From the NCBI GenBank assembly GCA_010015805.1, contig ML978121.1, forward strand, positions 3,286,001-3,350,000: DNA of 64,000 nt. Reading direction: 5' to 3'. This stretch comes from Rhizodiscina lignyota. Its lineage: Eukaryota. The translations under genes and the position numbers were made by a program. Below the pieces are notes generated by a model that saw only the letters and a program-made list of their open reading frames with translations, was not told the DNA's origin and did not search any database. Of the stretch, positions 13,099 to 54,978 are shown in pieces. Position 1 is the stretch's first letter, and every line of letters starts with the position of its first letter.

Positions 13099-16000
13099 TC
13101 AAGCCGGTGACCCACACCGTGTGCAAACCAAATGATGGCCGCCATGTACCACCCTGGCCCGGAAACTCACGCTCCCGCACCTCTTGCACTTCAATTCGCC
13201 TTCGCCTTCGCTGTGGCCTTCGCCTTTCTTCTTTTTGGGATCGCCCGCGCCGTCCTCCGCGCCACTGGTCCCGCCGCTTGCTTCCCCACTGCTCTCTCTT
13301 TCGCTGCTCAGCTGGCTCACCGCGCTGAGTGATGGCATCAACTCCGTCCCTGGAGTTGGCGGGTGTGACGACGGCTTGAGTAGGTGTCCACCGCCGAAGC
13401 TTGTTGGCTGGCCGGTGGCCGGATCAGGGACATCGGCGGATGGGGAGGCGGTACGGCTGCCCGATGTGTTCCAGAAGATGTACGAATGGCCAGATTGGAG
13501 CCACAAAGGATTAGAGTCGCCTTTCACCGGTTGTGGACGCTGCTCTGCGCCATCACCGCCGTTGCCGTTTGTGGAATTTAGGTCTTCGTGACTCACCATC
13601 TCCGGTGACTCTGTGAGTGTGAGGGGGACAGAAGTGGCGAGCGGTGATAGCGCCGTTGGCGTCGTGGCATCGGAGCTCATTAAGCTAGCTGACAGTGGTG
13701 CAGGCTCGAACCCTCTGCCACCACGCATCTGCGGTGATGTCGGCGTCGGTGCGGTGATGCTGAGATCTGGGGAGCTCATGATCGTGGGCGGCGGCGTGCC
13801 AGAACGGTTTATGCTCAATGCGTTGCGGAGGCTGCTTTTACTCTCGACTTGCCCGAGGGCGCTGGTTGACACACTTCCATTACCGAATGACTTCCGCGGA
13901 CTCATGCTACGATTTCGATTCCCCTTGGCGACTGCCGCACGCAAGGCGAGGGAGCTGGTCTCCAGGCTCCCTGTACTCGCAGCTGCAGATCCCGTGCCGG
14001 CGATGCTCTGTCGCCAGCTAAGAATCCGCTCACCAGGAGGCTGTGTTGTCGTGCTGTTAGCTCTTGAACGGCTGCTTGCCACGCTGCCTGCGACGCTATT
14101 TCGACTTGCGACTGTTGCAGAGCGACCGATTCGGCCACCGCCAACGCTGCTCGTTAGACGACGCGAGGTGCGGGAGAATACGGAGGCCGCGTCGCTCCAT
14201 AAGTCAGACTTGCGTTTGCCGTATGCGCAGTCCTGTCTGAAGACTTTGATGTTCCCTGCATAATCAGCGGTAACAATGATGTTTCCACCCATGTGCGCCG
14301 TCCTGGCCAGATACGCGGGGCTTTCTTCTGCACGCTTGAACGTACCATTGCCTTCGGCAGTAGCAGGCGTTGGTTGAACACTGCTGTCCCCATTGCGATC
14401 TGGAGGTTCACCACTTGGTGCAGGGCCAGAAGCATTGGATCCTGTTCTTATCGATTCAGAGCGTGAGATCAGCGTGACCGGGGGTGGGTTGCAGAGATCG
14501 AACACCGGGTCTTCACTTGCGCTGAGTACCATACGTGTCTTCCTTGGTGCCAGGATTGCTCCCGTCGTCATAGTGTTGTGGGCTTCAAATACCTCCATAG
14601 GTCTTTGCTTCTCCCCTTCCTGTGTCGCACCAGTGCTCCATATGTACGTTTTGCGATCTTCCGATCCGCTGATAACAAATCGCGAGTCGTCGGAGAAGCT
14701 GGCGCGTATTTGCGACGCCATGTTCTTGTGGCCCTTGAACTTCATTTCTAGGCTCTTGTCCCGGAAGTTGTAGAGCCGTATTCGTGAGTCGTTACTTGAT
14801 ATAAGCAACTTGACGTCTCGTCTTAAGCTGCTTGTCGGTGAGTAAGGAAGGTTGTGTCCGCTACCCTTACTCGAGCTGCTTCCAAACCGATCGTCTCCCC
14901 AATTGGTGGCCTGGATACTTGTGATTTTTGCTGGTTTCGCATTGCGTCCGGAGGACTTGATATTGATCTGAGTTTTAAACTTCAGCCCATCGGTATCATA
15001 GAAGGAACATGTACCACCCATTGTCCCAGCAATGGCGGTCTTGCCATCTGGAGTGAATGCGACGGCAGTGATGATTTCCGTCAGCTGATTCCAGTATGCC
15101 ACAGACTTATCCGGAATGCTCCATAATCTCAGTTTCGTGTCGAGGCTCCCCGCAAGAAAGAAGCGGTCATCGCGCGGATGGAACTGGATACTGGGGCAGT
15201 ACTCGGCGTGTTTGAAAGTGACCAGACATTCGTTCCGAGAAACGTGCCATAATCTCACGGTCTTGTCAAAGGATGACGAGAGCAAGAAGTTGTTCTTGCT
15301 CCAGCTAATGTCGATGACCGTGGATGTGTGCCCCTCATACTCTCGCAGCGGGTTCCTTCTGAAGACTGGTGCGCTCAGGTGTTGAGCAGCGTTTCCATCA
15401 GTATTCCCGTTGGCTGCCTCCTCGTCTTTCTCATGCATTCGCCTCTCCTCGCGTGACGAAAGAACGCCCCAGACGCGCACAATCTTGTCCTGGCCCGCGG
15501 CCGCGAGATATTTCCCGTCCTTGCTAAACTCCAATGCCCAAATCGCATCGGTTCCGGAGTCAGCGTCAGACTTTATCCTGCCCAGGCCACTTTTCGCAGA
15601 GTCCACTGTCGCAACGTTCCCAAGATCGCTGCTCTTTGTTCTCTCTATAATGGTGTCGCCACCAGCGCTCTTCGGTCGTATTCGCCCCTTCCTCAGCTCT
15701 TGCGCAAGAAAGACTCGGTCAAAGTCCCTGTCCTTCTTGAACTTCGCCCTGAACTTGATATATCCAGGCGGTTGAGGGTGTCTCGGGCTGAAGCCAACAT
15801 TATCCGCCGAGTGGGAGAACAACTGAGCGTCCATCCCCTCGGGTCTGAAGTCCGCAGTCTCATCGTCGTCTTCGTCAATCGCAAGGTCGCTCCGATTTTT
15901 CGATTTATTGGGCGCGAGGATGCGGCTCAGGAACGACACACCTTTTCTGATTTTCAAATTGCGGAGTCAGCCGGAGGAAAGGATTACCCAGACCCAAATA

Positions 16001-30525: not shown

Positions 30526-31248
30526 TCAGATATAGTCATTCTGCGCATACCAGTCTCCCCGGCCCTCAGGAATCAAGTCCAGTATCATCCACACTGCGGT
30601 GAATAAATCACCGCCACGCTCCGGGAACCGCTCCTGGTCTTCGTTCTCCTTGTCAAAGTGGGCATTCACAGTGTACACGTGTCTGACAATGCCCTCCTTC
30701 TCCTTTTTAAAGACACTCATTGACGGAACATCCTTGAAGTCGGGCATCCACGGCGGGTGCTCCAAGTGCATGTCATTATTGAATGTGCTCTCTAGGCTGG
30801 ACAGGATGCGCAGATTGTGCCACCCGCGTTTACGCGCCCACGCACGCAGCTTGCGAATATCGCCCTTGCCAATGATCGCGAGGTTGGCGCGCTGCTCAAT
30901 GTGCTTGGCAGCGCCATTGATGCTGTCGATGGCGCAGCTGCACATGGAACAGGCTTCTTCGGCGTCTTCGCCAAACATCATGTGGTAGATGATGAGGCTG
31001 CGGCCGTCCGCGGCGAGATCGGCTAGCGTCGTCTTGGTGAATGGGCCATCTTCGTTGAGGTCGCGTGGTCCTTCGATGAAGGTATATTCCTTCATGGGAG
31101 CACCTGGTGGAAGAGCTCGACGCATCTCAGCGACGCGCTCGACTTGATTGCGGAGGTCCCACTCGGCTTTGAGGAGATCGGCACGAGCCTGCTTGTACTC
31201 CTCGCTGGCACCAGCGGGATAGCGTTCGATGTGAATTGGACCAGGCAT
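30526..31248 (-). CDS. DUF899 thioredoxin-like protein
   Basis: ARADLLKAE..L....ERVAEMRRALP, LIIYHMMFG, CSMC, ARKRGW..LSS..STFN.D, LDLIPEGR; intronless. Confidence 0.9.
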   Translation of the reverse strand: MPGPIHIERYPAGASEEYKQARADLLKAEWDLRNQVERVAEMRRALPPGAPMKEYTFIEGPRDLNEDGPFTKTTLADLAADGRSLIIYHMMFGEDAEEACSMCSCAIDSINGAAKHIEQRANLAIIGKGDIRKLRAWARKRGWHNLRILSSLESTFNNDMHLEHPPWMPDFKDVPSMSVFKKEKEGIVRHVYTVNAHFDKENEDQERFPERGGDLFTAVWMILDLIPEGRGDWYAQNDYI

Positions 31249-32500
31249 CTCGGCTGAAGCAAAGTATTATTCTTCTGATGATACTGATAAACTGATTCTG
31301 AATAGAGAATTGGGAGCGAGGACTGGAGCGTTTGATTGTGCTATGCGCTGATGAGCAGCTGGAGGTCAACCCTGTACCATATTTATAGAGCAATTGAGAA
31401 GCAAGAAGGTATGAGAGATCAGTAATCTGAAATCAATTGCGCCTCGTATCTAAGGCTGCAATGCGTATCACGGAACCTTTTCAGTGGTATGGATGCACTT
31501 GTTAGAGTGCAGGAGCCCGAGATATGTGGGAGAACGTCGTAGGTGCAGTTCGGTTTCAAGTGACGGTGAGAGCGCCACACAAACTCTGAAGATCAAGCTG
31601 GTGCCTATTCTGAGCTTGGAAACTAGGCATTGAGTCAATTGATTCAGGACGCCAATTTGCAGAGCAATTGAAGTGTCGAGAAGCCTTGCATGATTTTAAC
31701 TTTAACCCCGCGTACGGCGCGCGCCACTGACGCGAAATCACGGGGTTCTGCCTAATCTCTTCGCATTTCCACGGATTCATAAATCCTTTCACATTCGGGA
31801 CGCTGAACTCGCTGATATCGACATGAGCTCGATGTCCCTGTATCACATTTCGCTATGCATAATGGATGAGCAGCTTAGACGGCTTCGCTAGTGATGTGAT
31901 CTGTCCTTGCTTGAGCCCCATGCGGCTGCAGGATTCGAATAATATGCCACAGGCGTGTGCGGCCGCTGATACTGTCTTTCATTTCGATGGCTGTGGAAGA
32001 GATAGTCTAACCTACTATGAAGTTTAAAGCTAATTGACCTCGGTATGTGTCTTACCTGGCTGTCAATAACTCTAGGTATCACTCGTTCGGTATTTTGTCA
32101 CCCCCTGAGCATGGTTCCGCCAGCCTGATTCTTCTGATTTCCACGACGAAATTTCCCCTCCAGACAGCTTCTATGGCAGAAAGTTGTGTCTTTCAAAAGA
32201 CACAGCTCATAGCTCACCTTTTGCCTCTTAAGGATGCAATGTCGATCGCTGATACTTAGACCGACCGTGTGCGGCCGCGCGTACATATCAAGCGTACATC
32301 AATACGTTACATGAATGTGCCGATTTCCTAGTCAAGAGAGAATATTCCCATCGAGTCTCTTGCACGTCGCAATTTGTACTGGTTCTCCCCAGGTTTATTT
32401 TCTTTTAGTATCTCTGAATTTTTTTTACCTACATCGGGTAAACTCTCGACTTCGTGCTCTCAAGCAAACTCTAAGAATCGGTCGAACTACCGTGCCTGGC

Positions 32501-33882: not shown

Positions 33883-35104
33883 GCTTCCATTTATACCCGG
33901 TAATAGCTCTTGATGTATTTTTGAGATGCTACGTTTGCACTGCCCTTGCATTCTAATTTTCGGCGAAAGTTATTTAGAATAGTGTCCATCATGAGAAGCA
34001 GACGAGAAGTGCAGTCTCGACATGTTTGACTTGAGGTAGCCGTGGAAATGGCAACCCTTGGAGAAAGCAGATGCAGGTGTTGTACTCCCACACACCTGAT
34101 CCCAGTTGCTCGCACAACTCAACAAGACGTTTGTGCGGCTGATGCCGAATCAGCAAATTAGTATGCTTCGTAATTTTGATGGTAGATATTAGAATTGTTT
34201 TTTGGTGCCCACGGTCGAGTTTCTGAATTGACACCGATTGCTGTCGATCTGTCGCCTGGAACACTTAAAAATCTAGAAAACGGACCGAGAGCCTCGCTGT
34301 TCCGATGAGAATCGCCTCCCAAAATGCCGAAGAATCAAATAGATCCAAGTTTGTCCTTTATGTTCCGTGAGAGACAACGTCGCCGCTGTACATCAACAGT
34401 TTTGCCACACATTGTGGTTAGCGTGTTCGCTGTTGCCTGAGCATCACGAAGCTGTATTTCGGAGAGCACTGAATCACGCCAGAAAATGAACGGGCCTACG
34501 TCGACAAGGCTCTTCGAGGCTGTGTCTCACGCAATTGGCTACTCGCAATTACATGTGTCGGTCTGGCAAGACGTCGTTTGTCCGAGATCCCATGGCATCT
34601 AAACACGGAAGATGACGAGCGGTCCAAATAGAGGTTCAACTGAGAGCAAAGATAAGACCACTGCAGATGCAGAAGATACAAAGCCATTTCTGTCCTCGAG
34701 GGCGAATATCTAGGCATGGGATTTGTAAATAGAAAGCTCGCAAAGTTTCGTATCCCTGAGACATACAGGTAGAGTACCCCTGCGCTAGTCCGAATGTGGA
34801 ACTCGCCTCAAAACTGGCCTTGACGTCTTGGATGTTTTTTTCGATCCTACATACACTTCTGTACAAGAAAATGACTCGGTATAATCACATGCACTGGCAG
34901 TGCTTTGAAAGCGTAGGATCCCACGGAGGGTTGATCCATTCCCATTCGTCAGTCGGGAATGCGACGCTATCGTTTCGAAGTTATGCATGGTGCATCTTCT
35001 AGCCTGGCGACGCATCGTGAGGCGCAGCACATAACCATCACCCGTGAAGATGAGTACATATTCACATTTTCCTCGCGTATTCTCTTCAACTCTCGCTAGG
35101 CATC

Positions 35105-37301
35105 ATGGGAGCGGTAGGTATTGCTCTGCCAGTAGCGTCTCTTGTAGTGCAATGCACACAGACAGCAAACGCGTGCAACGATGTCAAAGAGAGATACCAA
35201 TCCGCACCAACAACCGTTGTAAGCATTATCGCCGAATGCAATTCCATCCAGCCTTCACTTCCGGAGATCGAAAGCTTCGCGGAGCGAGCGCTTCCCTACC
35301 TGGATTCAGAACGCCAACAGCGATTTCAGTCTTCCGTGTGTAGCCTTTGCGAAGGCTGTATAACCGCTCTCACCTCGATCGACGAATGCTTGAAAGGTTC
35401 CGAAGAGATTTCTAGCAATGGCGGTATCATTATTCCACCGGTGCGTCGATTGAGTAGGAGGGGGAAAGGACGAACGGCATGGAACGAGAGAGAGCTTCTG
35501 GTGTTGCTAGACCGTCTTCGGGGCTATCAGACTAATCTCATATTGTCGCTCTCCCTGTTGAGGCTGTGAGATACCAAGAACTCTTGGGCTGGCTATGCTC
35601 ACGCTGATGGATCAACAGAGAATCAGATGAGAATCTTCGGCAGCTGATCGAAGTGCAAGGTAGCATGCTGGTCGCGATGCACTCGCGATTCATGCGATCC
35701 AACCTACACTCCTCGAGTCAGATGGATACCAATACAGAGCGTAAAGACGCCCGGAGATCGATATACGGAAACCGAAGCACATTGTCTCTTTTCGATGATG
35801 AAGCGATCACTGCTCATCTCGTGCGCACAAGAGCTGAAGACTCCTCGAGCGCTCCCGACTTGAGCGCCAGACTCTCTACCCTCGCCAATTCCAATGCGAA
35901 CAATTCCCAGACGAGCCTACATACAGGCCTGTATGTTGCTAACCCTTCTTGATTAAGCATCGACTCCACCCGCAGTAGCATCGTCTCCGAAACATCGTTC
36001 CTATTTGACGCCGAGGCTTTGAACTTGCGTGCATATCGAGCAGTGTTTCGGAAGCGAGTCAAGAAGCTGGTTGGTGCACCGGTAGGAAATATTCTGATGG
36101 CCGGTGTAGAGTCATTAGAATGGTGCTCGGATTGGACGGTCTCTGCATATTATGCAGCGCTTGACTATCTGGGCGACGTTGCTGCAGAGACGATTCTCGA
36201 CGCGGAAGACCAGTCCATTTATTACTCGATATTGGAAGATGACATTCCTGATCGCGTAAAATCCTCTGATCCAGCGCGGCCGTCGACCGCAATGTACGGA
36301 TCTCTTAATAGGCGACTTGACAATCATGGAGCGCCGTACCCTAAGGTACAAAATCGGGTTGTGCCGGTGGAAATAGCAATGATGATATCAATGGGCAGAA
36401 TGCCAACATTCAAAGGTGTTCCTAAAATCAAGTACGTAACCGTGAAATCACATCCGGTTAATTGTCCTGAAAAACTCATGACCGCAGATGTACCGTCATA
36501 GGCGAGGGCAGCTCTCCCAAAACAAGATTACTCTGGTCGTTCATACATGGCAAACCTCCGGAGGCTTATACCCCGAGGACATTCAAGGACTCTGCACTAA
36601 CAATTAGGTAAGGCGGTCCAATTTGCTTCACAACCGGAGCACACACCTACTAATCTCTTCACCAGGTTGAAGTCCACCAGAGAAGGGGACTGGTGGGAGG
36701 ATCGGCGGGTTCGGATGAGCCTGTTCGACACTTCTGGCCTGGAGGAATATGATAAGCTTCGCCGAATGCACTACGAAAACACTGATGTTTTCTTGATTGT
36801 GACTCCGGCCAATGCAACTCCGGCCGCCACGGCAACGACAGGTGCTAGAGGTCGGCATGCATCAATGGACAATGCGACGAAATGGGAGTATGATATTCGA
36901 AGCCGCTATTACAACACCCCGTACTTGATTGTTCGGGCCAAAGATCCAGCGAACGATCCAACGCAGCCATCATCGAGCGATGAAGGGAATAACAGAAAGA
37001 GCTCGGAATCCGAATCCCCTTGGAAAAATCCCGGACCTCTTTCTCTTGGAGCGGTCAAGATAGTACAATGTGATCTTGGAAGCGGCGAGGATATCATGAC
37101 AGTTTTTCGTGAGGTATGTATTTGAGGATAGCCGTCGCAGTGATTTTGCTACTCACTTCCACATCGCAGGCCATTGTAGCGGCCTTGAACTTCAAAGCTG
37201 ATAAGGCATCTGTGAGAAGCATGCTGAGGAACGTAAGGCAAAGCAGAATGCTACGTCAGCTGATTCAAGGCCGAAGAATCATCGAGACAGATGAGGGTTG
37301 A
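35105..37301 (+). CDS. HeLo-like/fungal STAND N-terminal domain fused to a degenerate Cdc42-like GTPase domain (about 648 aa if fully spliced)
   Basis: Exons 35105-35565, 35619-35930, 35958-36431, 36488-36607, 36666-37113 and 37170-37301 join in frame. The C-terminal part reads IKCTVIGEGSSPKTRLL...YTPRTF...SLFDTSGLEEYDKLRRMHYENTDVFLI...LGAVKIVQC...VFREAIVAAL. The second intron is abnormally short (27 nt). Confidence 0.8.
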
Positions 37302-37812
37302 CATTGCAGACCGAAAGGCAAACTTCGTACGGAGTACTCCTGGATATTTCGGTGTCGTCGAAATTCAAAAGGTTGGGAACATCGCTGCGCGTTGAACTAA
37401 GAGATGGAGTACACTTGAACAGCAACAGTAATGAGAAGAGATTTGATGGAAAGATCTTTACAATAGTTCGGTGGATTTGACATCAATTTCTTTCTACTTC
37501 TTTCTGCCTATTATAGCTTAAGCATAGCAGATTGACCAACGAATTGAAACAAGAAGAGCAACTAAGGCTGAAATTTCATAAGCATATTAAATCAGTTAAG
37601 GTGCTTAGACTTCTTTATGAATCTTCTTGGTGATGTTCAAGGTGGTACCTTGAGAGGTTTTTGAGGCGTCGATTTGAAGGAAGTGTTGGGACGGCGCCGA
37701 AGATTATCCGGCGCCAAGTCTTGAAATAAAACACCACACTTAGATTAGTACGTAATAAATTTGTTACCATAAGGCTGAAGGCGGTGAGTGAAAAGTTCTG
37801 CCGGCCGTCTCC

Positions 37813-37896: not shown

Positions 37897-38607
37897 ATGA
37901 GGTCTGTTGTACACGACTGCGTTACTTTCACTTGAAGCTGATATCCTACAGGATCGAGACTTGTACCTTCTGTTCTCGCCCAGTCTACCCCTCCAAAGGT
38001 ACGCGATATCCCTCGAAGCATGCTTCAGATCAGCAATTTAACCAGTGATGTCTTTTCAGGTATCACATTCGTCCGCAACGACGCGAAACTCTTCCGCTTC
38101 TGCCGCTCGAAATGCCACAAGAACTTCAAGATGCACCGCAACCCGCGCAAGCTCGGCTGGACGAAGGCGTTCAGGCGCGCGCATGGCAAGGAAATGGTCG
38201 TCGACTCCACACTGCAGTTCGCGGCGCGGCGCAACGTGCCCGTGCGATACGATCGTGACAGGGTGGCCACGACGCTCAAGGCGATGCAGAGAGTTGCGGA
38301 GATTAGATCGAAGAGGGAGAGGCAGTTCTACAAGGAGCGCATGAAGGGTAACAAAGAGAAACAGCGGGCAGCGAATCGCAAGTTGGTGGAGGAGAATCAG
38401 CACCTGTTGCCTCCGGAGGAGAGAGATGTTGTACCGGAGCATATCTTGGCACAGCAGGAGCTCGAGGCGGCGAAGATGGATGCAGAGGTCGATGTCCAGG
38501 AGGAGGAGGAGCAGCTTGTGGAGAAGAGGCCGAAGAGCATACTGAAGCAAAAGAAGCAACGGCTAATTGTTGGCCATGGGCCGGAGAATATGGACGTGGA
38601 CGAGTGA
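37897..38607 (+). CDS. RLP24: Ribosome biogenesis protein Rlp24
   Basis: [54 protein letters not shown]; two introns (about 37902-37951 and 37999-38059). Confidence 0.96.
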
Positions 38608-51368: not shown

Positions 51369-53842
51369 TCATATCAGTGTAATTTCTTCTGCTGGCTGCG
51401 TATGTCCCAACCAGGATTGAGGAAGACAGTCCCTTTCAGCGACGCAAAGCCCCACACCGATCCTCTCGTATGTGCCAGGGACCGTCGCTGAATTCTCAAC
51501 TACGAGAAGATAATATCCTACTCCAGTTTGCCCCGTCTCTCGGCCTGAAGCATCTTCTCTGAATACTGGTATCGAATGCAAGACGAGACAAAGACACTCG
51601 CCGTTGTCTTCCGGCTCCCAGTCTTTGTCGTCGAAGTGAATGTGGCCGGGCAAGTCTACGTGAGGCTTCCCAGACGGTCGAACTGTCATCTCACAAATGT
51701 TGAATGTTGGCAGGTTATCCAGAGGCTCAACGAACTCAGTTGGCGTCCACCAGTGCCTTGTTTTGAGTTCTCGCATACTATTCCAGTATTCGTCGTTGTC
51801 TCTACGCTTGTTGATGCGAGCGGGCCACATGTGTGCAGCAACTCTGATCATTGTCCGTGTGATCGACAGGTCCTGGGTTCTGTCTGCCCACTCAAGGACA
51901 TGTGGTCGAGCGTTGTCGTACTCACTGATGAAGGTTGCAAATTCGACAGGTCCTTTCCAGGCTGCCCAGCTCCATGATGGTGCTACGTGATCAGTTAGCG
52001 ATAATTCAATAGCCGACATCAGCTCACTGTGGCAATACCTCCTGATGCAGGTTGCCTTCTAAGGTCGTCCGATGACGCGTACCAGAACAGATATCGGGCG
52101 ATGTCCTCTATCCATAGGCCGGCACAGTAGGTTAGTCTGGTTCGCGCTTCAAACAACTTGGCGAGACCAAGGATTGCAATCAACTTGTCACTCTCCTCCG
52201 TTAGATCTGCAACATTGTATCGAGATACTACTCGGTTCCAGAAACGGTATTGCGCCTCAACGACAGGTGTACCTATGCCAATGCCCGTCGCATCCTTCAA
52301 CTTATCCCAGGTCAAGTAGGCAATGGCTCGGAGAGACCGAAGTTGACGTGAGGACGCCGTCAGGGAGTTCGCCAATGTTGTCTCTCGATTGAGGCGGTCA
52401 AAGATTGCTCGCTTGGAATGTACTCCCGTGTCTCCGAGGATCTCATGGGAGGATGTCTCAGGGTAGAGACCGTGCTGGCATTCGAAATACAGCTTCTGAT
52501 GAGCGAAATGTATGATGCGACGAGACAAGAGACTCTCCTGTACCACCCATCCACGATGGTACCACTTACTAATCTCTAATTCCTTGTTGAACCCGCTCAA
52601 GCTCATCGGTGGCTCAGGGCAAGCTATTCCAGAGACTCCGATATCCCCGATTCTTCGGCCCTTCTCATTGCACGGAATCCTGAGAAAGTTTTCGCCACAT
52701 GCACCCGCGGGAGCGGCGAAAATATCAGGATCTGGGCGATGGAATAGACCCTCGTCACTGCTTTGGGCAGAAGTTGCAGCGATTGTGCATACTGCATTCT
52801 GAAATATTCGACCCATGTTCTGCGACTCTCTTCTCCAGTCGTCCGGATCGTCTTGAACAATGCAGAGCGCATCTACCCACAAATAGCGCATGCCCAAGTT
52901 CTGGGTTACAAGTATGGCATCCTGGACTGTCTGAGGCAGGCTATTTCCAGGTATTTCTTCGCGGAATTGCCCTAGTGTGTCACGAGTTGTCCTCAGTGCT
53001 TTTTTCGTAGGATCGCTCAGTGCTGATCCCCAACAATAGCTCAAGGTTACGTACGGGCGTCTTTCTCCGCTTGATATGAAGAGAAGCGGCCTCGCGCCAG
53101 GCTCTGTGCCCACGTCAATCACGCGGGTCGGAAGCAAAGCAGGCCGTGAACTGTCGTCGATTTTAGCACCCGAAAGCGCGAGCCGACAGCTCAGGTGGTT
53201 CTCCATGCAGTTCTTTAGCCATGCTCTGCCGCGCTTAAACGCGAGTTGTGAATTTGGTGGTACTATTGGCCGCCCAGGAAGGCGAGACTTGGCTGCGGGA
53301 GGAGAGTCTGCACGTTTGTCATCAGTTTTAGCGGGGAATAGAACGGAGATGCTGTGGGTACCTTTAGTCGCAAAAACTCTAAGAACTCCTGTATATACAG
53401 CAGAACCCGAAGCCTCCGAAGCGTGATAGTTGCCTGCAGCAGTCCGATCAAGGGAAACGATAATGCACGTCAACCGAGCGGGCGGATGAGCTTCGCCAAG
53501 TTTGGTTCTCCTCTCACGTTCGGCAGCAACGCTCGAGTATCTCGGTTGTGCAGCACGGTCTAGGACGCCGTCGAGGACGACGCCCTGGAGGAACACTCTC
53601 CTCCCCTTGACCCACTCTGCCAGCGCCTTATGATTCCCATCGCGGTCTACAGCAACGGCATCCAAGATGGCTTTGCAGAAGCGGCAATCGCGGCATGTCC
53701 TCAAAACTTCGTGAAGAGTCGGACCGTAACAATAGCCTTTCTCTAGCTTATCTAAATCAATGTCCATGCAATAGTTGCAAAGGCCTGATTCAGCTGTTCC
53801 ATGCTCTTTTGCTTGTAAATCCTCTGTAGAAATTGGCGACAT
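51369..53842 (-). CDS. Heterokaryon incompatibility (HET) domain protein
   Basis: WLKNC..NH..C, LPTRVIDV, YVTLSYCWG, LPQTVQDAI, RYLWVDALCIVQDD, RGWVVQE, DKLIAILG, APSWSWA, YERIG. Introns 52038-51983 and probably 53361-53308. Confidence 0.93.
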
Positions 53843-54978
53843 GATTAAGAAAAGCCACCGTCAGCTCCGCTAATCATTCGTCTGACACATTACCATTTGG
53901 CTGGGTTATATCATCACGCCTCTTGTGGCGATGCTCAGGGTCCGACGGTCAAGAAATGGCGCTTGGATCGGTGATCCAATCCAGCTTAAGCATTTCGGTC
54001 GAAGACTTCAAGAACGGTGTTGTAATATGATGGTGATGAAAAGCTTCATCTGCCCGGCGAAGTTATAGCAATGTATTGGCCTCGAAAGCGAAGCGACATC
54101 TCTCGTGTTTCCAGCTCGTACAGAAATAGCAGGCGGAATTTCGGCTATTCTTTGGCAGTTCCCGTATCCTAATTCTCCCACTTCCGAAGTTTTCCCGTAT
54201 GTACATAATACGTATTTCCTTCTCACGCGTTATGAGTGAATTCCGCGGATATTTACATCAATGCTCAAGCAACATGTGCGAATAAGTGTTCGATTCTCTA
54301 GGTTGAGCGAATTGAAGCCCGGACAACACACGGGCATCAGCGGTCATGAACCGCTCCTCCCTGACAAGCTGTACACCATGAGGACGAGCAGCTCCTGCAC
54401 TTCGAGGTGAGCGAGACTATCTCTGAAAGCTCGATTGTGCGTCCTTTAGAGTGTATTAAAGAACAGCGAACCATAAACAAACTCTTACACGCTTTACTAA
54501 TTACAGAGGCTACACACTGCTGCTGTTCAGTGTCTTGAAAGCGGCAGAAAACTTTTTGTCACCATGAAGTGCTTCTTACCCTCACGTATGAGACGACTAT
54601 CTCCCGTCCTTCTACCTGAGAAGCAGGTAAACTTTGATCTCTCATGTTTTGAGTTGTTCTAAATGATCATCGAGTCGTAGCAGACGGAGAAGAATTATAG
54701 CAGTATATAGAGTGCTTGTTACATTGTTTATTTGGAGCCGGGGTTCCGAGTGTAGATTCCTTTCTTGCTGGAGCCTTCGAATTTCTGAATTGCACCTTCC
54801 TTCAAGTTGCGGCTGCTCTCGATCCAGTTTATGACGCCCTCATTTATGTTGTAACAACTTCTCTTCCTTTCCTTCATTCCCGCATAATCCCACATACTTT
54901 TATAGCCTGAAATCCTACACAGTATCTCGCTGCCTTGCTTCTCAATAACCTAATTACTTCAACCTTTATAATAACCTA

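Follow-up and report, generated by a model that had tools for sequence, protein, structure and literature searches.

The stretch of Rhizodiscina lignyota contig ML978121.1 analysed here, 64,000 nucleotides (nt) long and hereafter called the window (positions 3,286,001 to 3,350,000 of assembly GCA_010015805.1), carries a six-exon gene on its forward strand, whose predicted product joins an N-terminal four-helix bundle of the PF17111/HeLo-like type to a degenerate Rho-like G domain (Table 1). Most of what we found, read from sequence, shows this to be an intact gene of a filamentous ascomycete, encoding a protein of ~648 amino acids (aa) from an undescribed Pezizomycotina family. An earlier note on the same DNA had proposed six exons spliced in frame and, re-derived from the sequence, the coding sequence (CDS) indeed comprises 1947 nt, corresponding to 648 codons plus the stop, with GT..AG borders at all junctions and donors of the fungal type (GTGAGA, GTATGT, GTACGT, GTAAGG, and GTATGT). 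The coding frame contains no stop codon, compared with 36 and 34 in the other two frames. Composition-preserving shuffles stayed open in none of 20000 cases for the whole CDS, in none of 20000 for the GTPase part, and in 4 of 20000 for exon 5 alone. The ATG at 35105 is the first after the upstream stop and coincides with the start of all relatives in the alignment. The exon that the note had described as absent from its list of open reading frames (ORFs) is presumably exon 4, which has only 40 codons.

The fusion of the N-terminal half with the Rho-like domain is real at the DNA level. No stop codon or gap was found between the two parts, and a stop-to-stop ORF at 35953-36501 spans both the conserved motif of the N-terminal module and the first strand of the G domain, which begins with VPKIK in exon 3 and is completed by CTVIGEG of exon 4. 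Exon 3, which also carries the stretch between these two features, has no match in Pfam or in the PDB.

Intron 2 is 27 nt long as read, compared with 53-58 nt for the other four introns, and the flanking exons 2 and 3 share one frame, parted by the TGA at 35950-35952. Its perfect GTATGT donor, GCTAAC branch box, and terminal AG give the segment the appearance of an intron rather than of a stop that arose by chance. Two further acceptors, at 35975 and 35978, would also keep the frame, giving introns of 45 and 48 nt. The residues IDSTRSS that follow the 35957 acceptor resemble LDSVQSNRSS in L001, a metagenome contig of the closest relative, which favours the short version. An independent contig assembly of DNA run X1 is letter-identical to the window over 34900-37500 (on one 303-kb contig; the run is possibly the window's own source), and the TGA is therefore not an assembly slip. 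Introns of filamentous fungi normally exceed ~40 nt, although our literature search found no paper that settles this point. Intron 2 is either among the shortest introns of filamentous fungi or a fresh disabling lesion.

Table 1. Features of the fusion gene and of its surroundings, in window coordinates
Feature	Position	Strand	Description
Exon 1	35105..35565	+	Start codon; predicted four-helix bundle (aa 1-153), PF17111/HeLo-like family by way of relatives; hydrophobic helix 1 MGAVGIALPVASLVVQC
Intron 1	35566..35618	+	53 nt, GTGAGA..CAG; conserved position directly after the bundle
Exon 2	35619..35930	+	Fifth helix ESDENLRQLIEVQGSMLVAM... and Ser/Asn/Thr-rich linker
Intron 2 (as read)	35931..35957	+	27 nt, GTATGT, GCTAAC, TAAG; in-frame TGA at 35950-35952
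Exon 3	35958..36431	+	Family motif, ~130 aa of unassigned sequence, first G-domain strand (..VPKIK)
Family motif	35995..36039	+	SFLFDAEALNLRAYR, a copy of FxFDxxxxNSxxYRR
Exon 4	36488..36607	+	beta1, degenerate P-loop GEGSSPKT, alpha1, switch I YTPRTF, beta2
Exon 5	36666..37113	+	beta3, switch II DTSGLEEYDKLR (Leu61), 13-aa insertion, eroded G4 AKDP, low-complexity segment of Rho-insert length, eroded G5, start of alpha5 (VFRE)
Exon 6	37170..37301	+	Remainder of alpha5 (AIVAAL, presumed), basic tail, stop codon; no CAAX box
Ribosomal protein L24e gene	37942-38607	+	Starts ~640 nt past the stop of the fusion gene
WD40-repeat ORF	13099-15966	-	955 aa, uninterrupted
DUF899 ORF	30526-31266	-	E 8e-42; unknown function according to Pfam
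HET-domain ORF	52019-53860	-	613 aa; PF06985, E 4.9e-31

The N-terminal module and its relatives

The earlier note had read the N-terminus as HeLo-like, a claim that stands through the relatives of the protein and not through exon 1 itself, which matches 0 Pfam families at E ≤ 10 and does not reach the gathering score of PF17111 (27.2 bits). A phmmer scan of exon 1 against 1.84 billion representative proteins returned 62 proteins with E ≤ 0.001, the best at 40% identity; two of them, P0058 and P0060, are low-complexity false matches, as seen from their multi-stretch matches and odd Pfam rows. We built the alignment A1 from exon 1 and the 42 short matches, leaving out the 20 long ones and with P0063 substituted for P0001, a fragment of it. 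When the 43 members of A1 were scanned singly, 25 matched PF17111 (PigL_N, formerly Helo_like_N) at E ≤ 0.1, with a best value of 8.5e-9, and three matched SesA. The PF17111 matches start at model position 1 and at residues 1-5 of the query and its relatives. Among the 30 relatives scanned, P0037 (27.5 bits) and P0040 (29.6 bits) are the only ones that pass the cut-off of the family, and in the ESM Atlas PF17111 clusters account for 24 of 30 neighbours, with a top score of 0.96. Membership of the N-terminus in the PF17111/HeLo-like family holds in this transitive sense only, by way of its relatives. Word-indexed protein searches with exon 1, exon 5, and A1 were empty, which is weak evidence, as HMMER later found relatives. 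The name HeLo-like for PF17111 is used in one paper (PMC9815663), and another describes the founding members as membrane-targeting cell-death domains that kill via their N-terminal helix and are related to MLKL's four-helix bundle (PMC12881547).

AlphaFold modelling followed by Foldseek, which the earlier note had proposed as a check of the N-domain, gave a divided answer. The AlphaFold2 model computed on A1 is a confident four-helix bundle (predicted local distance difference test, pLDDT, 87.5; predicted template modelling score, pTM, 0.81) with helices at 4-30, 36-65, 68-105, and 128-152, the hydrophobic first helix lying at the extreme N-terminus, but Foldseek found nothing in the PDB at E ≤ 0.001. 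Of the 27 positions best conserved in the family, the window protein retains 21, including E44, C45, L52, C85, W126, R139, and G140, and the N-domain is therefore not degenerate. The A1 family also displays near-invariant Glu44-Cys45 and Gly84-Cys85 pairs and a frequent Cys17, all kept in the window, which might form a metal, redox, or acylation site.

In VIA-align searches with the bundle, MLKL (4btf) appears at rank 10 with Z 10.9 and a root-mean-square deviation (rmsd) of 2.7 over 100 aa, next to the coiled-coil (CC) domains of Rx (11.4) and MLA13 (8.7), and the list is led by IncA (14.2) and SPECT (12.8). Helical bundles reach Z ~13 in this comparison through arrangement alone; the likeness to MLKL is accordingly not specific, and an MLKL-like bundle agrees with the fold searches but is not singled out by them. 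A model of P0040 (281 aa, pLDDT 75.5) superposes on MLKL with Z 10.4 and rmsd 2.1 over 100 aa at 20% identity, and plant CC domains (Rx, MLA13, and NRG1.1) occur in the structural match lists of both models. Searched against PDB sequences, the A1 profile returned only coronavirus heptad repeat 1 (HR1) and other coiled-coil rows, which we took as noise from heptad composition; MLKL and HET-s were not listed. A four-copy complex prediction for the N-domain, in which the alignment was not used, scored 0.15 relative to a mark of 0.32 and speaks neither for nor against assembly.

Similarity to the relatives extends beyond the bundle. The spliced protein aligns with them over the fifth helix to ~aa 175 and again, after the Ser-rich linker, at the central motif that the earlier note had singled out and that proved to be common to the relatives as FxFDxxxxNSxxYRR (for example SFEFDNIIVNSRVYRE in P0004, VFDFDNEVLNSDLYRG in P0070, FFTFDDELVNAPVYRR in P0026, and AFDFDNEAINSRAYRQ in L001). 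The N-half including this motif aligns in P0004, P0008, P0019, P0034, P0035, P0070, and L001, and in the relatives the conserved N-half of 240-300 aa is followed by variable cargo. Intron 1 is shared as well: the closest relative, L001, has GTAAGT at the same place, after ...LSLSLLKV. Many database relatives, most of them ~150 aa long, are ORF fragments that end at this position because the intron lies directly after the bundle. For the most part, these observations show that the N-half, comprising bundle, fifth helix, Ser-rich linker, and motif, is a reusable module in a Pezizomycotina family. In the P0040 model the motif is helical (pLDDT ~70), and a further helix occupies residues 161-195 (pLDDT ~75-81). 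A reading of the FxFD motif as FFAT-like (two phenylalanines in an acidic tract) was considered and dropped, since its conserved NSxxYRR tail and missing double-Phe core do not seem to match the FFAT consensus.

The cargo was tallied in the 20 relatives of at least 250 aa. LIM domains are the most frequent (7/20: P0004, P0008, P0012, P0019, P0022, P0024, and P0036), followed by DH-type RhoGEF domains in four proteins (P0026 and P0035 above the cut-off, and partial matches in P0033 and P0045 below it). One relative, P0037, has a weak SH3 match, one, P0053, a degenerate Rho domain, five have no cargo domain, and the remaining two are low-complexity false matches. The LIM-bearing P0008 and P0012 (872-928 aa) contain ~300 additional C-terminal residues without a Pfam match, a conserved region that ends in a further Cys-rich, LIM-like stretch.

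Two relatives carry a small-GTPase domain. P0053 (Aulographum hederae KAF1986636.1), whose only name is 'Fungal N-terminal domain-containing protein', aligns at its C-terminus with Cdc42 41-160 (E 1.1e-5), although it has no Pfam match, and lacks a CAAX box; by this alignment it represents another Rho-type fusion, in which erosion has gone even further. P0070 (631 aa), a member of the 90% cluster of P0006, combines the N-half with a Ras domain (E 2e-53; residues ~436-631) whose P-loop GGKDTGKC is changed at Ras positions 12, 13, and 17, which has NKCH for NKCD, and which ends in the CAAX-like CAFM. GTPase cargo in this family may generally be non-cycling. Among the 19 clusters that were looked up, long forms (P0070 and P0073) occur only in that of P0006. 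The ESM Atlas holds a 77-member Ascomycota cluster under the same automatic name, in which Ras is annotated in 96% and PigL_N in 12% of the members (score 0.93).

The Rho-like G domain

The C-terminal part is, by its alignments, a degenerate G domain of the Cdc42/Rac type, and its best matches lie in the Rho and not in the Ras family. Exon 4 (39 aa) is colinear from end to end with Cdc42 6-44 (E 0.003, phmmer), and exon 5 aligns with Rac1 49-174 (E 1.7e-9, phmmer), in agreement with the earlier note, which had placed the C-terminus along the length of Cdc42/Rac. The best 60 rows for exon 5 are all Rac, Cdc42, or Rho-family GTPases; at the top stand Rac1 chains from the PDB in which position 61 is likewise Leu. 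The Pfam Ras model also matches exon 5, with 27.4 bits relative to a cut-off of 21.6, whereas exons 1, 2, 3, 4, and 6 have no Pfam match. Exon 6 alone has no match in the PDB; its AIVAAL is presumably the counterpart of the Cdc42 segment, an assumption that we base on colinearity after VFRE and not on a tool result.

Most nucleotide-handling motifs of this domain are lost, and the changes that the earlier note had listed for the P-loop Gly, Thr35, Gln61, and G4 can all be read in the alignments with Cdc42 and Rac1. The G1 P-loop GEGSSPKT stands in place of GDGAVGKT, so that the second conserved Gly is replaced by Pro while Lys and Thr are kept. Switch I reads YTPRTF instead of YVPTVF, with Arg for Thr35. 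In switch II, Gln61 is replaced by Leu and DTSG is kept. G4 is lost, with VRAKDPAND (AKDP) for VGTKLDLRD (TKLD), and so is G5, with QCDLGS (CDLG) for ECSALT (CSAL). The effector loop is heavily altered (FKDSALTI versus FDNYAVTV of Cdc42), and Thr35, Gln61, and the Asn39/41 position are all replaced. The domain retains Lys16, Thr17, Phe56, Asp57, Gly60, and most of switch II. A 13-residue insertion follows beta4, and a low-complexity segment occupies the location of the Rho insert. The protein ends in ...RRIIETDEG and hence, as the note had stated, has no C-terminal CAAX box.

Candidate functions of the fusion

In what we regard as slightly less than an even call, we favour the view that the protein provides a Rho-like binding module that does not cycle, binds nucleotide poorly, and is placed in the cell by the bundle; its most likely role is to trap or dock a guanine nucleotide exchange factor (GEF) or another Rho regulator. 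Leu61 and Arg35 would remove hydrolysis and the sensing of Mg and the gamma-phosphate, leaving the G domain unable to switch, and Pro15 together with the lost G4 Asp and the lost G5 predicts a very low affinity for guanine nucleotides. Switch II and the Phe56 region form the main GEF contact of small GTPases, and by retaining them the domain could serve constitutively as a Rho-like docking site for such regulators. Some sister proteins have a DH-RhoGEF domain attached to this N-half. We read the domain as a trap or docking module because nucleotide-free small GTPases bind GEFs tightly. PMC4905258 reports this high-affinity binding; it also reports that the equivalent of the Ras G15A mutation drastically lowers nucleotide affinity and is used to enrich Rho GEFs, and that a mutant of the G4 Asp is a nucleotide-free, GEF-binding mimic. 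As there is no lipid anchor, the protein would be positioned, and perhaps clustered, by its N-terminal module and not by prenylation; membrane binding, clustering, or pore formation are options for the role of the N-half. The output could be that polarity signalling is controlled locally or that a membrane-active bundle is released.

Several points weigh against a GEF trap. Nucleotide binding, GEF binding, and localisation are all deduced from motifs. The residue at position 15 is Pro and not Ala, and it could simply unfold the loop. Intron 2, with its 27 nt, may be unspliceable, which would leave the N-half as the only product. The CAAX-like CAFM is retained in P0070, and the N-module is therefore no simple substitute for prenylation; furthermore, LIM is not strictly a Rho-pathway domain. 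Exon 5 of the window gene and P0053 are not significantly similar (BLASTP E 0.94); the two Rho fusions could have arisen independently, or decay may be under way in one of them. The closest proteins, P0063, P0002, and P0003 (35-40% identity), are known only as exon-1 fragments whose clusters contain no long forms, and L001, the single 1225-bp contig recovered in the metagenome scan, ends just after the motif.

A rather unlikely alternative is an MLKL-like executioner, in which a membrane-permeabilising HeLo-like bundle is restrained by a pseudo-GTPase that serves as sensor or bait, and is released when an endogenous or pathogen partner changes. It would draw on the killing activity of the PF17111 founders through their N-terminal helix, as given in PMC12881547 and PMC9815663, and on the hydrophobic N-terminus of the window protein, whose domain, like those of HeLo and HELL, starts with the first residue. 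In combining a bundle with a pseudoenzyme, the protein resembles MLKL, on which the bundle superposes (4btf, Z 10.9; P0040, Z 10.4) in lists that also contain plant CC domains, and the lack of a close orthologue among the 1.84 billion representatives (best 40% identity) fits fast-evolving non-self genes. These structural scores, however, lie within the range of any helical bundle, with IncA and SPECT scoring higher and Foldseek empty at E ≤ 0.001, exon 1 has no Pfam match, and most relatives stay under the PF17111 cut-off. The search for NOD-like receptors (NLRs), amyloid motifs, and NACHT domains found none in the 20 longest ORFs of the window or in the 30 relatives scanned; of possible context, those ORFs offered only an unrelated HET-domain ORF 15 kb away. 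In line with the earlier note, no NACHT or NB-ARC domain is present in any exon by Pfam, nor in any of these relatives (0/30). Covalent Rho toxins modify Thr35, Gln61, and the Asn39/41 position, and the replacement of all three in the window is the opposite of what a toxin bait would lead one to expect. LIM, DH, and Ras cargo would be odd choices for a sensor; LIM, DH-RhoGEF, Ras, and weak SH3 partners read more like small-GTPase or cortical signalling than like baits. Nothing here supports the earlier note's proposal of an integrated decoy or bait coupled to an executioner of cell death, and three points weaken it: the toxin-modified residues are gone, the ORFs and relatives scanned gave no NLR context, and LIM, DH, and Ras would hardly be obvious as baits. 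A variant that joins both ideas, and that we consider less probable still, is a fungal counterpart of MLKL in which a pseudo-Cdc42 GEF trap controls the bundle, and an abnormal GEF of the fungus itself or a microbial GEF-mimicking effector releases the bundle or clusters it at the membrane; the sister proteins with DH-RhoGEF, Ras, or LIM domains would then be executioners wired to small-GTPase nodes without NLRs.

The gene could also be decaying or truncated, with an unspliceable intron 2, translation ending at the TGA at 35950, and a Rho-like part that is an untranslated relic of a CDC42/RAC duplicate. We consider this improbable, if somewhat less so than the MLKL counterpart just described. 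The 27 nt of intron 2 relative to 53-58 nt elsewhere, the single frame of exons 2 and 3 with only the TGA between them in a region that the second assembly confirmed, and the loss of G1, G2, G4, and G5 would all fit decay. Against it, ~390 codons past the TGA are open across three more canonical introns, a state that shuffles of the GTPase part never reached, and GTATGT, GCTAAC, and AG are placed exactly around the TGA, as in an intron. Moreover, the residues after the 35957 acceptor are conserved with L001, two more in-frame acceptors (45 and 48 nt) are available, and switch II, the beta strands, and alpha5 are well conserved, unlike what random decay would leave. Lower still do we rate a working but unconventional GTPase, in which a Cdc42-like protein that binds GTP or another nucleotide, and is locked on by Leu61, would be tethered by its N-terminus and drive CRIB- or formin-type effectors at one fixed location. 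A change to Leu61 is the classical way to lock a GTPase with GTP, and Rac1 chains with Leu there are the best matches in the PDB. Lys16, Thr17, Asp57, and Gly60 are kept, as is most of switch II, and P0070 is altered at Ras positions 12 and 13, where changes in Ras block hydrolysis stimulated by GTPase-activating proteins. Pro15, Arg35, the loss of the guanine-reading G4 Asp, and the loss of G5 nevertheless make stable GTP binding unlikely, and the effector loop is heavily changed (FKDSALTI versus FDNYAVTV). Very improbable, finally, is a merger of two genes in the prediction, an N-module gene (exons 1-3) and a small Rho-like gene starting from a Met late in exon 3 (..MMISMGRMPTFKGVPKIK). Several ATG codons do lie just upstream of the first G-domain strand, but the halves are not parted by a stop codon, a terminator, or a gap large enough for a promoter, and since the motif and the start of the G domain share one ORF, this reading would depend on an internal promoter that no evidence supports. 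The N-half also occurs in single database proteins fused to a Ras domain (P0070) and to a Rho-like domain (P0053).

Known systems and genomic surroundings

Compared with HeLo-like and HELL proteins of PF17111 (for example HELLP), the window protein is alike in its start at residue 1, its hydrophobic helix, its length of ~150 aa for the domain, and its predicted four-helix bundle. It differs in that its sequence is below detection by the family model and in lacking a C-terminal amyloid motif or a partner NLR; a link to an NLR or an amyloid motif is typical of the PF17111 family, not obligatory. The subfamily of the window adds the fifth helix, the FxFD..NSxxYRR motif, and a signalling cargo, and for it a killing activity is a candidate property only. 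MLKL is laid out in the same way, with a four-helix bundle at the N-terminus, helices that connect, and a pseudoenzyme at the C-terminus (4btf, Z 10.4-10.9). Its pseudoenzyme is, however, a kinase and not a small GTPase fold, the linker of the window protein is ~260 aa long and largely of low complexity, and the structural score does not exceed the helical-bundle background; the modelled similarity is a likeness that does not establish homology.

With Cdc42, Rac, and their dominant-negative or nucleotide-free mutants (G15A, T17N, and D118N types), the window domain shares colinearity from beta1 to alpha5, a Rho-type switch II, the TDVFLI segment, and Phe56 as in Cdc42. Its changes fall at positions whose laboratory mutation makes such proteins nucleotide-poor and GEF-trapping (PMC4905258), but G1, G2, G4, and G5 are degenerate at once, the 13-aa insertion follows beta4, the CAAX box is missing, and the domain stands behind 415 aa. 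The Ras-bearing 'Fungal N-terminal domain-containing protein' entries (the 77-member cluster and P0070) have the same N-half, the same position of intron 1, and a C-terminal small GTPase. They carry a strong Pfam Ras match (E 2e-53) and a CAAX-like end, whereas the window domain is of the Rho type and far more degenerate; a search with the P0070 domain misses the window, and the two domains compare at E 0.039. The resemblance to integrated decoys of plant NLRs is conceptual only, a domain resembling host signalling fused to an immune-type module, and the window protein has no NB-ARC, NACHT, or repeats, has lost the toxin-target residues, and has no paired helper that we found.

Our searches of the open-access literature turned up no fusion of a HeLo-like or PF17111 domain with a small GTPase, a RhoGEF, or LIM, although NLR surveys may include such architectures in their supplements. 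Dyrka 2014 (PMC4986451) uses none of the words GTPase, Ras, Rho, and LIM, and a preprint on Sordariales NLRs mentions GTPase only for the exclusion of an orthogroup. The architecture of N-half and cargo is already present in databases, under automatic names only. HeLo-like bundles in fungi are known as cell-death executioners, attached to NLRs or triggered by amyloids, and the window locus points to a subfamily used otherwise, with a fixed N-half joined to Ras, pseudo-Rho, RhoGEF, or LIM. If the bundle is membrane-active, this would provide a direct link from Rho and Ras to regulated cell death and a second case of a pseudoenzyme in control of a four-helix bundle. Should the bundle instead serve for targeting, the family would comprise unrecognised polarity regulators of Pezizomycotina, including natural Rho proteins of a dominant-negative-like kind.

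Near the fusion gene lie a ribosomal protein L24e gene and genes for an RBBP4-type WD40 protein, Sos7, But2, and a GNAT protein, which places it among housekeeping genes and not in a variable-gene cluster. The HET-domain ORF is 15 kb downstream, neither adjacent nor related to the fusion gene. In the WD40-repeat ORF, the repeats cover residues ~200-490, and none of the 25 rows listed assigns a family to the C-terminal half. The DUF899 ORF encodes a protein that Pfam describes as bacterial.

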